In this document: positions 1,805 through 7,500 of the stretch, one piece after another
How the letters are laid out: every line of letters begins with the position of its first letter
How positions within the stretch are numbered: position 1 is the first letter of the stretch
Origin: Escherichia phage PSK2
Strand: one strand, 5' to 3'
Length of the DNA: 43,322 nucleotides
Sequence record: PP541514.1
Notes under the pieces: model-generated
The model's input: only the letters and a program-made list of their open reading frames with translations
Databases searched by the model: none
What the model was told of the DNA's origin: nothing
Program-made: the position numbers and the translations under genes

Positions 1805-2020
1805 ATGAAGTATCGTGATAAGTTAGCGCAACAGTTCGCTGGGCTGGAGAAGCTATCTGGTGCTGAGTTAAGAAAGCGTCGAGATGCACTGAATCGTGCT
1901 GGGTATATGCGGACAAAGCAATCCGCTACATTCAGTACGAATGTGCGCGGCAAAACCAAAACAAAGGGCAGTAGCAGGGCGCCACAAGGTTGGTACACTG
2001 CCGGACAGTTTGGGCGCTAA
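1805..2020 (+). CDS. Small basic hypothetical early protein (71 aa)
   Basis: ATG at 1805 preceded by GAGGGG; track ORF 1724 begins at an upstream GTG in the same frame. Confidence 0.45.
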   Translation: MKYRDKLAQQFAGLEKLSGAELRKRRDALNRAGYMRTKQSATFSTNVRGKTKTKGSSRAPQGWYTAGQFGR

Positions 2021-2029
2021 TTACAGCCT

Positions 2030-2051
2030 ATAGCATCCTGCGAGGTGCTAT
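2030..2051 (+). promoter_or_regulatory. Second copy of the conserved hairpin (TAGCATC / GGTGCTA)
   Basis: Same stem sequence as 1749-1781, placed between the first and second early genes. Confidence 0.3.
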
Positions 2052-2095
2052 GTGATGTAATTCGTTAAGTAAACAACTAACCAACGAGGTGTATT

Positions 2096-4108: not shown

Positions 4109-5809
4109 ATGCAAGAGACTGACAAAGTAACCGTAGATGCAAACGTACCTGCCTACGAGGGTTGGACCATCAAATTTCCAGAAGGGGCCAATGCTCTTCC
4201 ACTGAAGGATAGTATGTACTCTTCCGGGGATTACTGGTGCCAACTTCCCTACCTATCAACTCAAGGCCGTGCGCGCGTGCAAAGTAACAAAACCCGTGCG
4301 CTTTTGAATGGCTTTTATATGTTGTCAAGGGTGCTGCCGGGGTATATTGTAGCACTCGGCAACTTTACAGCTGCAGGAGAGGATTTGGGTGGGTATGTTG
4401 GGCCGCTGGGCACGGTTGATATTAGTGACACTCTCCTGCATAACCTCTTTGACTGTGTAGGTATCTGCGACCAAGCATTCGGTTTATCTAGCAGAACCTT
4501 CTATGATGGCCCTGACGTAGTTACAGAACGCGTAGTAGAAGCGGTCCAATACTTTACCGGATACAAGGTGCACAAACAGGCTATAGAGTTGTTCGAAGAG
4601 GCTATGCTAACACCTAATCACTACCTCCGGGCCAAGTATCTGCGCGGATATGCTCGTGGTGATGGGGACTACTGGGCCGCAACCTTGCTTATGCAGTTGC
4701 ACGGATTTGTGGTGTCTAGATTTGCAATCCCCCTGGGTTTTGGCTTCCGCAACGGTGAACCTGTAGTAATGCTGGGGCAGCCGCGACTGCACAAAGATTA
4801 TGCTGCAATTACAGAGTATCGCTGTGTAGAGATGCGCGTAGGTAAGTGGCTCGCTAACTATTACGGCGGCGGTGTAGACTTCCGGGAATGTATCGAAGAT
4901 CTCAAGGCTATGAATGTGGAGCCTACTACATATCTTTGTAAGACCGAGCGGGAGTGGTACGACGCGTACGAAAATGGCCCGCGTAGCTGCATGACCGGAT
5001 ACAACTTTGAGTATAGCCCGGTGCGTGTATATGCCACGACTAGTCACGGCTTGCCGGATAATGGGCTGCGCTTGTTCATCCAGTATACCGGTGAACTTTT
5101 TGGCGACGACTTTAAAGTGCACGCCCGCGCTATCGTTAACATCGAAACCAACGAATACGTCCGTGCATACGGAGATGCTGCGGACGCCATTCTACGTGCT
5201 AATGGGTATGAGTGCGATACAGACTGCTTAGGTGGCGCACTACTGACACGCATTCCGCACCCAGAGAATGAGGGTGCCGTGCTTATGCCGTACTTAGACG
5301 GGAATCAAGATGGGGTAGATGAAAAGGGGGATAACGCGTTCGTTATCTGCGACTGCTATGACTATGAAGCACAGGACGTTGACGGGTACATTTGGATTGA
5401 TGATGGTCGCAGTGCTTGTGCAGAGTGCGGGGGACGTTTCGACGAGGATGCCATGTACATAACTTGTGACGGTGGTTATGTATGCCCGCACTGCATCGGT
5501 GATACTTACGTACAGGTAGTAGGACGCAGCCGGGTATATCCAACATGGGATTGCTCGTGGTCTGACTACCATGATTCTTGGGTATTCGACTGTGACGTAG
5601 AACATTGTGCTGTAGAGGGTGTAGTGTATGATGAAGAGCCAATGGTGTGCGCACAAGGGTACAATGTTCTGAGTGGGCATGCCGAAGAACACCCCGTGCA
5701 CGGTATGATTCTCACGGAGTATGCTGCATCCGTATTGGATGAGCCTTACCTCGGCAACGAGGAAGCTAAAGAAGACAAAGAAGCTAACGCGGAACAGGAG
5801 GCAGCTTAA
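4109..5809 (+). CDS. Large early protein of unknown function (about 566 aa) with Cys-rich, zinc-ribbon-like C-terminal region and acidic tail
   Basis: ATG at 4109 preceded by GGAGA; same frame as track ORF 3815-5809, whose first 98 codons would overlap the upstream gene; Cys clusters CDCYDY, CAECGG, CDGGYVCPHC, DCDVEHC. Confidence 0.55.
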   Translation: MQETDKVTVDANVPAYEGWTIKFPEGANALPLKDSMYSSGDYWCQLPYLSTQGRARVQSNKTRALLNGFYMLSRVLPGYIVALGNFTAAGEDLGGYVGPLGTVDISDTLLHNLFDCVGICDQAFGLSSRTFYDGPDVVTERVVEAVQYFTGYKVHKQAIELFEEAMLTPNHYLRAKYLRGYARGDGDYWAATLLMQLHGFVVSRFAIPLGFGFRNGEPVVMLGQPRLHKDYAAITEYRCVEMRVGKWLANYYGGGVDFRECIEDLKAMNVEPTTYLCKTEREWYDAYENGPRSCMTGYNFEYSPVRVYATTSHGLPDNGLRLFIQYTGELFGDDFKVHARAIVNIETNEYVRAYGDAADAILRANGYECDTDCLGGALLTRIPHPENEGAVLMPYLDGNQDGVDEKGDNAFVICDCYDYEAQDVDGYIWIDDGRSACAECGGRFDEDAMYITCDGGYVCPHCIGDTYVQVVGRSRVYPTWDCSWSDYHDSWVFDCDVEHCAVEGVVYDEEPMVCAQGYNVLSGHAEEHPVHGMILTEYAASVLDEPYLGNEEAKEDKEANAEQEAA

Positions 5810-6843
5810 TGTATGGTGTTGACCTTAAACTACTGACAAAGATACTAACAACGCACCGACCTAGCTGGGGCAGTACCAAATGGTTTGAGCCTCTTCTTAG
5901 TGGTGCCCTTGCCAATGCAGAGCACTACGTTAGGGACGCGCACGGTAACTACTTTGTGCTTATCGGTGACTCTGAACAGAGTGACGTGGCGTTTACATCA
6001 CACCTAGACACAGTGGCCCGGCCCGGTAGCGCTGCCCCGGACATTGCAATTACTAACAAGGGCGTAATGTTCCTACGCAATCCGCAAGTAGCGGATTGTC
6101 TAGGTGCAGACTGTGGTGCCGGTATTTACCTGATGCTGGAGATGATTAAGCGGGGAGTACATGGACGTTACTGCTTCTTTGTGGATGAAGAGGTAGGTTG
6201 TGAGGGCAGCAGAGCATCAGCCAAGGACGATACTGGCTTCTGGACTGGGGTCAAGGCAATGATTAGCTTTGACCGCCGGGGTGATGGTATCATCACGCAT
6301 CAACGATACCAGCGTTGCTGTTCTGATACGTTCGCAAAAGAACTCGCGGCCCGGCTAGGGCGCACGGAAGCACACTTACAGAAAGGAGTGTACACTGACT
6401 CTGCCGAGTTCGTAAGTATTATCCCAGAGTGCACTAACGTAGGCGTAGGGTACATGCATGAGCATACACCAGACGAGGTGCTGGACTTAAATATACTTGG
6501 ACAAGTACTTGAGCGCGTATTACAAGCGGGTACGTTCAAGCACCTACCGATTGAGCGGGATCCTAAGGTAGTGGAGCCGGATGCGTGGTTGTCCTCCTCA
6601 GCGTACCCTTTTGTTACAGCGCTGGATATTCCCCCTGCAGAGGATCCGCATTTACTAGCAGCATTCAAGGAGGTGTCACAACTTTCTAAGCGGCAACTGA
6701 TTAGCTGGGTGTTGGACAACCCAGCAAGGGCGGCGGAGTACATCATGGTGTATTCTGACTATGGATTTAAAGACGAGCTGATTGAACTAGGCACCCGAGT
6801 CGTAGAGGACTGGGGTGGGTACGATAATATTGTGGAGGGTTGA
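5809..6843 (+). CDS. Putative zinc metallopeptidase (M20/M28/M42-like aminopeptidase fold)
   Basis: AGGAGG ribosome binding site; motifs SHLDTV, GADCGAG, VDEEVG, SFDRRG, YMHEH recall the His/Asp/Glu-Glu/Asp/His metal ligand pattern of these families; assigned by eye only. Confidence 0.45.
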   Translation: MYGVDLKLLTKILTTHRPSWGSTKWFEPLLSGALANAEHYVRDAHGNYFVLIGDSEQSDVAFTSHLDTVARPGSAAPDIAITNKGVMFLRNPQVADCLGADCGAGIYLMLEMIKRGVHGRYCFFVDEEVGCEGSRASAKDDTGFWTGVKAMISFDRRGDGIITHQRYQRCCSDTFAKELAARLGRTEAHLQKGVYTDSAEFVSIIPECTNVGVGYMHEHTPDEVLDLNILGQVLERVLQAGTFKHLPIERDPKVVEPDAWLSSSAYPFVTALDIPPAEDPHLLAAFKEVSQLSKRQLISWVLDNPARAAEYIMVYSDYGFKDELIELGTRVVEDWGGYDNIVEG

Positions 6844-7301
6844 TGATGTCTAAATTTAAAGTTGGTGATAAGGTTGTCCGCAAACCACACAAAGATCACC
6901 TATCATTTAAGAGAGAACAAGGGGATTATGATTACTACGTAATTACAGATACATCCGAAAACGGACACTGGTTGCAATTGAATGACTCTAGTATCGACGG
7001 CGATCTCTGCCCATGGTATGCTGCTAACTTCGAGCTATATCAAGAGCCGGACGACGAGCTGCCACCAGTTCCGAACAGTGTCTACTATCCGGATATGTAC
7101 ACACTACTAACAGGACTACCGGCGGCTGGGGGTACGTCCGGGTTAACTGTGAAGAAGTCACCGTTTGTATCGGGAGCTGTAAACCTGTCTATTGATGGTA
7201 GTAAATGGACGCGATTAGATGCAGACGCAGCCCTGCAACTGGCACACGACCTTCGTCGCATGGCTATGGATATTAAGCGTAAGGAGAAAGCAAATGCCTA
7301 A
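6840..7301 (+). CDS. Hypothetical early protein (153 aa)
   Basis: GGAGGG ribosome binding site; ATGA overlap with the upstream gene. Confidence 0.5.
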   Translation: MMMSKFKVGDKVVRKPHKDHLSFKREQGDYDYYVITDTSENGHWLQLNDSSIDGDLCPWYAANFELYQEPDDELPPVPNSVYYPDMYTLLTGLPAAGGTSGLTVKKSPFVSGAVNLSIDGSKWTRLDADAALQLAHDLRRMAMDIKRKEKANA

Positions 7302-7500
7302 TAAAGTTATCACATACACGATGCCGCCTAAGAGCATTGTGGTTGGTATTCCATTCACCTGGGGAACACGTGGTTTTTGGGCTATAAAGGTAGCGAGCGG
7401 TGTCAAATACAGTCTGGCAGATGGTGGGTTGGTGAATGTACCTGAAAGCGACATTCTGTCGAATGGAATAGTGTACGCTAATAGTATTGAGATTAAGTAA
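7294..7500 (+). CDS. Hypothetical protein (68 aa)
   Basis: ATG at 7294 preceded by AGGAGA; in frame with track ORF 7219-7500. Confidence 0.4.
   Translation: MPNKVITYTMPPKSIVVGIPFTWGTRGFWAIKVASGVKYSLADGGLVNVPESDILSNGIVYANSIEIK

Follow-up and report, generated by a model that had tools for sequence, protein, structure and literature searches.

We analysed positions 1805-7500 of the genome of Escherichia phage PSK2 (sequence record PP541514.1), the whole stretch of 43,322 nucleotides (nt) being referred to as the window. This block holds twelve plus-strand genes, named here g1 to g12, which we read as the conserved early, pre-replication operon of the genus Drulisvirus, with a probability of about 0.6. 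The block is real and well defined, yet it represents the usual early region of a genus of phages that has been sampled extensively, already described for KP34, SU503, fHe-Kpn01 and PhiM1; this region is found in every Drulisvirus genome paper, annotated but functionally blank. What is new here is the pairing of g9 with g10, the overprinting of g8 by g9 and the reading of a published promoter motif as an RNA hairpin. The g9-g10 linkage is the most useful new result of our analysis.

Twelve genes between a probable early promoter and the primase

First, the twelve open reading frames (ORFs) are real genes rather than chance ORFs, since all of them match a PHROG family (12/12, E values from 1e-20 to 0) and have homologues across 46 related loci. 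These loci (L001-L046) comprise 43 related loci fetched with the g9 core and three annotated records; every protein of the window was run against them by tblastn, and every gene of the block was recovered. Genes were called from their start codons and the ribosome-binding sites ahead of these, with annotated relatives as a guide. A preliminary description of the same DNA had counted at least a dozen tightly packed ORFs ahead of the replication genes, and this part of it holds well. Indeed, most junctions are overlaps of 1-8 nt or gaps of 2-8 nt, the exceptions being g1/g2 (75 nt) and g3/g4 (29 nt), and the primase gene starts at position 7500. Such tight spacing would permit coupled translation. 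The description of the products as small proteins, by contrast, does not fit g9 (664 amino acids, aa) and g10 (344 aa), which together occupy 53% of the block, about 3.0 of 5.7 kb.

The window is a complete genome of a Drulisvirus podophage (KP34-like Autographiviridae, Slopekvirinae), as seen from megablast and from the gene layout. With positions 1700-7600 as the query against 50,697 phage records, megablast matched 250 records, nearly all of them Klebsiella, Escherichia or Shigella podophages of this genus. EC22.5-2, Minorna, KPV811, AV102 and Kpn13 share 84-87% DNA identity with PSK2 across 90-94% of the block, ZH5 and Hope share 89-90% across 83-87% of it, and 14 records cover at least 80% of it. 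The annotated gene order of Minorna, Hope and fHe-Kpn01 agrees with that of the PSK2 block, in line with Drulisvirus membership. Eriksson et al. (2015) listed KP34p02, p05, p10, p11 ('putative peptidase') and p12 as core genes of the genus (PMC4411677), and Buttimer et al. (2018) treated the genes located before the primase as the early genes of PhiM1-like/KP34-like phages, with a function given only for the peptidase (PMC6115819). Following the block, the primase (7500-8288), helicase (8488-9768) and DNA polymerase (10127-12511) genes succeed one another on the plus strand; beyond them lie an ORF of the size of an RNA polymerase (RNAP) and then ORFs of structural size, all on the same strand.

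A sigma70 promoter upstream of the block had also been announced. Such a promoter, TTGACA-17-TATAGT, is present on the plus strand at 1522-1550, where a consensus scan matched 11 of 12 positions, and this 29-nt promoter type recurs 5′ of g1 in six relatives (L007, L012, L018, L019, L024 and L028). However, it does not adjoin the block, as it sits 283 nt upstream of g1. Other relatives have two further recurrent TTGACA-type promoters, both in the list of Eriksson et al., and host promoters were described in KP34-like phages at the position of 1522-1550 (PMC4411677). Judging from its sequence, this element probably acts as the early promoter: the host sigma70 RNAP would start there and transcribe rightwards through a 254-nt leader (1551-1804, plus strand).

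The leader is conserved, with 76-99% DNA identity to 33 relatives over the aligned segments, a level roughly equal to that of the neighbouring genes, and no ORF of at least 30 aa lies wholly inside it. Its RNA fold has a z-score of -2.6, and directly 5′ of g1 (about 1748-1783) it contains a hairpin, TAGCATCC...GGGTGCTA, whose upper stem is the same as that of a second hairpin located between g1 and g2. The latter (2019-2062, plus strand) is a two-part structure of -15.6 kcal/mol (z = -3.4, minimum free energy fold), in which a conserved internal loop separates a lower stem of 7 bp from an upper stem of 9-10 bp, and it contains a 32-nt motif (2025-2056). When 32 distinct copies, drawn from many phages, were aligned, pairing was seen in 93.6% of cells over 18 pairs, and 9 of the 18 pairs have changes on both sides; these copies are paralogues and hence represent fewer independent events than cells. 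None of 500 shuffles matched the observed pairing, and slid controls fell to 25-45% paired. At least five unrelated sequences were found in the lower stem, every one of which pairs. A further copy, truncated, lies 5′ of g4 (2814-2838, plus strand); it reads AGCCTATAGCGT and thereafter diverges, so that its 3′ arm is lost in PSK2, and no stable fold was predicted for it (z = 0.0). This copy is intact in most relatives. An Rfam scan of positions 1-8500 returned nothing at E ≤ 1.

In T7, the early mRNA carries intergenic two-part hairpins with an internal loop, which are cut by RNase III. The hairpins described here resemble such sites: like them, they are intergenic, span about 20 bp and have stems split by an internal loop. 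By analogy with T7, the long early transcript would probably be cut at the hairpins flanking g1. Eriksson et al. had named the 32-nt motif a 'putative phage promoter' (PMC4411677), and KP34 RNAP gave no in vitro transcription from it (PMC6834552). This published motif is a covarying two-part hairpin, and reading it as an RNA processing hairpin would correct the literature.

Core genes and fast-turnover genes

The genes of the block differ in how far they are conserved. Amino acid identities reach 88-96% for g2, 85-95% for g6 and 78-91% for g8, the last two in all relatives, and 81-98% for g10 where the locus contains the full gene, against 84-98% for the primase and 92-100% for the helicase taken as reference enzymes. 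In the g9 core, relatives from Klebsiella are 55-62% identical and those of the E. coli/Shigella subgroup 83-88%. In contrast, g7 is 34-72% identical and often absent, g11 is 33-66% identical, g12 was detected in 10 of the 46 loci (39-70%), g3 is absent or truncated in many relatives, the C-terminus of g1 is variable and replaced in some of them, and g5 is missing from three loci (L002, L006 and L008). The block thus looks split into core genes and fast-turnover genes, and only the latter resemble arms-race material. For g2, g6, g8 and g10, a conservation close to that of the primase and helicase appears to fit core phage functions better than arms-race anti-defence.

In the core layer, g2 (2096-2671; 191 aa) encodes a mostly helical, slightly basic core early protein with an isoelectric point (pI) of 8.4; both sequence homologues and structural matches of this protein occur solely among uncharacterised phage early proteins, mostly of podophages. 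The other two core proteins, g6 and g8, are strongly basic. The product of g6 (3336-3515; 59 aa, pI 10.2) belongs to DUF7267 (PF23929), which it matches with 91.4 bits (cut-off 27) over model positions 4-64 of 64; our literature search found no paper mentioning this family. The g8 frame (3718-4062; 114 aa, pI 9.75, phrog_6167) shows a clear third-codon-position periodicity and encodes a GKCGC motif. Together, g2, g6 and g8 would most likely serve the phage's own programme, for instance through nucleic-acid or polymerase binding. As core genes, they may be essential for a phage group that is used therapeutically.

The remaining small genes, g1, g3, g4, g5, g7, g11 and g12, evolve fast or are patchy, and we regard them as candidates for interaction with the host. 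g1 (1805-2020; 71 aa), preceded by a GAGGGG ribosome-binding site, encodes a very basic protein (pI 11.3; phrog_6352, E 6e-44). The patchy g3 (2668-2808; 46 aa; phrog_10968, E 1e-30) shares 4 nt (ATGA) with the stop end of g2. g4 (2838-3059; 73 aa; phrog_7657, E 4e-45) is acidic (pI 4.55), with a variable N-terminal half and a C-terminal half, TEMAARTxLDAVNLGIIxDWRQLYG, that is conserved. g11 (6843-7301; 152 aa; phrog_4317) encodes a modular protein. According to the family alignment, its SH3-like N-terminal domain and its C-terminal helix are both conserved, and between them lie an ELPPVP linker and a middle segment that is mosaic. Several unrelated versions of the middle segment exist according to lineage, and that of PSK2 is common to L006 and L041. 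Finally, the patchy and variable g12 (7294-7500; 68 aa; phrog_10858) has an AAGGAG ribosome-binding site. For fHe-Kpn01, published HHpred searches gave no significant matches for the small proteins and, for the g11 homologue gp14, a weak match to the SH3-like fold of R67 dihydrofolate reductase (92%) (PMC7291057).

The best case among these candidates is g7 (3512-3715; 67 aa), the single gene of the block with an experimental phenotype in a relative. Its product is 53% identical (E 6e-25) to Gp10 of fHe-Kpn01 (L003:3721-3930), which occupies the same gene position. Spruit et al. (2020) screened the hypothetical proteins of fHe-Kpn01 in E. coli and confirmed that Gp10 (69 aa) is toxic, the protein inhibiting growth of the bacterium (PMC7291057). 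The toxicity of this homologue directly supports a role in host takeover, which is a reasonable reading of the block as a whole.

Host takeover or anti-defence had been proposed for the entire block. The early position and the toxic homologue of g7 speak for host takeover. It is rather unlikely, in our opinion, that the block is mainly an anti-defence island whose small proteins inhibit restriction-modification, CRISPR, cyclic oligonucleotide-based signalling (CBASS) and similar systems, with g5 as a DNA mimic. Its position does equal that of T7 genes 0.3-2, g1, g3, g7, g11 and g12 are fast-evolving or patchy, the presence of g5 varies, the middle of g11 is mosaic and g5 carries a net negative charge. 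However, g2, g6, g8 and g10 show too much conservation to be genes of an arms race, and half of the block length is an enzyme module formed by g9 and g10, so that anti-defence is an unlikely role for these parts. In Pfam, NCBIfam, PHROGs and PADLOC, g1-g9, g11 and g12, except g6, have no annotated-family match; PADLOC gave zero matches for the proteins of the block, and none of these libraries is dedicated to anti-defence proteins. In addition, an AntiDefenseFinder survey that included three Drulisviruses reported matches only in other Klebsiella phage genera (PMC12629751), and our literature search on Drulisvirus transcriptomics or anti-defence returned nothing directly relevant. Among the variable genes, g1, g3, g5, g11 and g12 are sensible anti-defence candidates within what we otherwise read as the early operon of the genus.

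The case of g5 (3052-3327; 91 aa, phrog_7036) deserves closer attention, as its acidic, Gln-rich product had been singled out as a possible DNA mimic. In DNA mimics of the Ocr/ArdA type, surface Asp and Glu make up roughly a quarter or more of the residues. With 13 Asp plus Glu in 91 aa (14%), a net charge of about -9 and a pI of 4.05, g5 is mildly acidic and falls short of this composition, and its Gln stretch is a variable linker rather than a conserved surface; a mimic of this type is thus not supported. The protein has conserved N- and C-terminal parts with two invariant Cys, between which lies the Q-rich linker of variable length. The linker (3145-3190) differs in length among close relatives, the shortest versions having up to 11 residues fewer, which suggests a low-complexity, slippage-prone segment.

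DinI is a known DNA mimic, and fHe-Kpn01 gp07, which is 86% identical to g5, bears the GenBank note 'putative conserved domain detected for DinI superfamily'; for these two reasons we examined whether g5 is a DinI-like modulator of RecA acting by DNA mimicry. The segment ELGARILAAVQGQYPDAAVTLTV does resemble residues 21-43 of DinI by eye. Nonetheless, the protein stops where the acidic C-terminal helix of DinI would start, and the searches were consistently negative. Pfam gave no DinI match for g5 at E ≤ 0.1, none of the best 120 of its 259 homologues carries a precomputed Pfam domain, and DinI was absent at E ≤ 10 when all PDB sequences were searched with phmmer or with a 28-sequence family profile. 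With hhalign, the g5 family and E. coli DinI reached a probability of 0.56% over six columns. The published HHpred search for gp07 likewise yielded 'no significant hits' (PMC7291057). Membership of g5 in the DinI family was accordingly rejected, and a DinI-like function is close to refuted.

The g9-g10 module

According to the preliminary description, the block contained no recognisable motif, a view that g6 and g10 contradict: both exceed a Pfam cut-off, and for g10 alone is there a clear homology with proteins whose function is established and unrelated. g10 (5809-6843) encodes a homologue of MH-clan zinc metallopeptidases with a C-terminal extension. Its match to PF04389 (Peptidase_M28) covers residues 53-186 and, at 23.0 bits, passes the cut-off of 21.3 by a small margin. 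Searches with the single sequence gave weak PepT-like matches; a profile including distant homologues retrieved from the PDB the tripeptidase 3rza (E 4.7e-10), PepT 3gb0 and the M42 TET1 aminopeptidase. All of 44 Drulisvirus and 7 distant homologues keep H65, D67, D101, E127, E128, D155 and H219 without exception; these residues provide the full zinc-ligand/catalytic set (His, Asp, bridging Asp, Glu-Glu, Asp/Glu, His), the putative role of each being assigned through alignment to PepT-like chains. The CCSD and ECxN motifs are also invariant in both groups. From the peptidase-family matches and the invariant ligands, g10 looks like an active metallohydrolase of the MH clan (M28/M20B/M42-like).

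HHpred had linked the g10 homologue gp13 of fHe-Kpn01 to DapE with 99.8% probability (PMC7291057). In the alignment with 3gb0, residue 139 of g10 pairs with residue 153 and residue 175 with residue 302, meaning that an insert of about 150 residues is absent. Since this is the lid/dimerisation domain of M20 enzymes, we rejected an M20 (PepT/DapE type) assignment and filed g10 under the MH clan.

The upstream partner, g9 (3815-5809; phrog_6980), has two conserved starts. Its frame is open from 3764 and stays open across almost all of g8 in 42 of 45 loci, being broken in three. The long form of 664 aa begins at an invariant ATG located 247 nt before the g8 stop (3815), preceded by an invariant AAAGAGG, and its first 98 codons overprint g8. 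When g8 was resampled with synonymous codons, the g9 frame remained open in 0.5% of trials (chance 0.005), and in codons 27-35 of g8 the synonymous sites are invariant exactly over the AAAGAGG ribosome-binding site and the ATG. Throughout the overlap, variation tracks the codon phase of g8, and the 98-residue extension shows poor protein conservation and low model confidence. The second start (4109) has a GGAG ribosome-binding site, follows the g8 stop by 38-50 nt in nearly all loci and opens the conserved core of 566 aa. Both starts are plausible, the long form looking like an overprinted, fast-evolving extension; published annotations also differ in the start they choose.

No Pfam or NCBIfam match was obtained for g9, and its 409 word-indexed homologues are all of Drulisvirus type. 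A profile search of 1.84 billion cluster representatives reached further, with 1068 proteins at E ≤ 1e-3 that share residues of about 338-620. This region contains a CxxC...CxxC zinc ribbon and, in an alignment of 42 remote homologues, the invariant or near-invariant residues S391-C392-M393, Y406, R438, P492-Y493-x-D495, C535, C538, C557 and C560. Ten remote homologues that were scanned had no Pfam domain, PHROGs gave only families of unknown function, and among PDB sequences the family profile found only generic zinc-finger similarity. The domain occurs in isolated phages of Klebsiella, Escherichia, Shigella, Vibrio, Acinetobacter, Pseudomonas and Cronobacter.

The two genes are linked well beyond the genus. 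g10 follows g9 in every Drulisvirus locus that is sequenced far enough, and the distant loci that we sampled all have a g10 homologue downstream of a g9-like gene (7/7), directly adjacent in six and three small ORFs away in one. In these distant pairs, the g9 homologues are 26-32% identical to that of PSK2 and the g10 homologues 36-43% (E 1e-33 to 1e-49). The distant contigs are phage-like: a portal gene of SU10 type is present on one, and on another an ORF of primase size is followed by genes for a DnaB-type helicase and for DNA polymerase A, in this order. On one distant phage-like contig, we also observed that the pair is immediately preceded by the gene of a bactofilin/YdcK beta-solenoid repeat protein (L047, 4970-5683). 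g9 and g10 form a conserved two-gene module, and the linkage therefore implies a shared function; most likely, their products would act jointly on a protein or peptide substrate, either of the host or of the phage. The module counts over 1000 cluster representatives, and one biochemical study would annotate many phage proteins.

A more specific proposal, which we put forward tentatively and would not bet on, is that the pair constitutes a widespread two-component phage enzyme system in which a zinc-ribbon protein and a lid-less MH-clan metallopeptidase cleave or modify a specific host target. The target may be a defence effector, a signalling peptide/nucleotide conjugate or a component of the cell envelope. 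The conserved domain of g9, of about 280 residues and without a Pfam, PDB or annotated relative, would be one component; the pair is adjacent across diverse podophages and probably expressed early, and the overprinted N-terminal extension would supply a second, regulated isoform.

Another possibility, which we judge improbable though worth weighing, is that the g9, g10 and g11 proteins are packaged in the virion, ejected with the DNA and active in the next cell by the time transcription starts or earlier, having been made late from a phage-RNAP promoter at the left end. Indeed, liquid chromatography-tandem mass spectrometry of purified fHe-Kpn01 virions detected gp12, gp13 and gp14, which are homologous to g9, g10 and g11 (GenBank notes; PMC7291057), and the g9 homologue of Vibrio phage vB_VpP_DE10 is annotated as a 'putative structural protein'. 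The strong promoter of KP34 RNAP has been defined experimentally (PMC6834552), and exact matches to it, T(A/G)ATGTTACAGGAGTA, occur at 507-522, 21697-21712 and 33277-33292, the first of them upstream of the entire block. On the other hand, 29 of 56 fHe-Kpn01 proteins were scored as particle-associated, including a metallophosphoesterase, so that carry-over of abundant non-structural proteins is likely. Moreover, the three genes sit among early and replication genes, outside the structural module, and a terminator-like hairpin (1345-1379) separates the phage promoter from the block.

Several of these observations weigh against the early-operon reading that we favour. g9, g10 and g11 may be packaged rather than classical early proteins, and, with a leaky terminator-like hairpin, the promoter at 507-522 could also serve the block at a later stage of infection. 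The toxicity of Gp10 was seen upon over-expression in a cloning strain and concerns a homologue that is 53% identical to g7. The structure model of g9 is poor (mean predicted local distance difference test score, pLDDT, of 57), and the split between core and accessory genes was drawn from conservation alone.

Two other features of the left end may be mentioned. An HNH/endonuclease VII-like ORF (708-1340; phrog_1035), located 3′ of the left-end phage promoter and 5′ of the early host promoter and followed by the terminator-like hairpin, has homologues in just two of the 46 related loci (L007 and L012) and looks like a mobile homing-endonuclease insertion. The window itself opens (1-60) with ten G followed by short direct repeats, GGCTAGGTGGCTAGGTGGCTAG, which may be a terminal-repeat region or an assembly artefact.

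Relation to known early regions and peptidases

The closest counterparts of the PSK2 block are the early regions of KP34, SU503 and fHe-Kpn01 (gp02 to gp15 in the latter). DNA identity to the closest E. coli, Shigella and Klebsiella members amounts to 80-90%. These regions share its gene order and protein families, its types of sigma70 promoter, the repeated 32-nt motif (PMC4411677) and a 'putative peptidase' ahead of the primase. PSK2 differs from fHe-Kpn01 in lacking gp05 and gp08. Compared with its KP34-like relatives, it has the HNH/endonuclease VII-like gene upstream of the promoter, a second hairpin copy without the 3′ arm and its own variants of g7, g11 and g12 (33-72% identity).

The class I early region of T7 (genes 0.3 to 1.3) is an operon at the left end driven by host promoters, with small takeover genes and two-part hairpins, a layout that the PSK2 block would share. 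However, no sequence or family homology links the PSK2 proteins to Ocr, gp0.7 or gp2, the RNAP gene of PSK2 lies after the replication genes, outside the block, and the peptidase module of PSK2 has no equivalent in T7.

As in PSK2, the early proteins of phiKMV/LUZ19-type Pseudomonas phages are small and mostly orphan, and the RNAP gene follows the replication genes (PMC6115819). Most proteins of the two groups have no detectable homology, and the weaker BFVD matches of g2 include one in Pseudomonas phage TL that is not significant (E 0.12). We know of no peptidase in the phiKMV/LUZ19 group.

Finally, g10 can be set beside known MH-clan zinc peptidases. It shares the HxDT, GADD/CG, EE and EH motifs with PepT-like tripeptidases (M20B; 3rza, 3gb0) and with TET aminopeptidases (M42; 2cf4). 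Unlike M20 peptidases, it is devoid of the lid/dimerisation domain of about 150 residues, and it is set apart from these tripeptidases and aminopeptidases by its invariant CCSD, by a C-terminal extension of about 100 residues and by its association with a g9-like partner gene.

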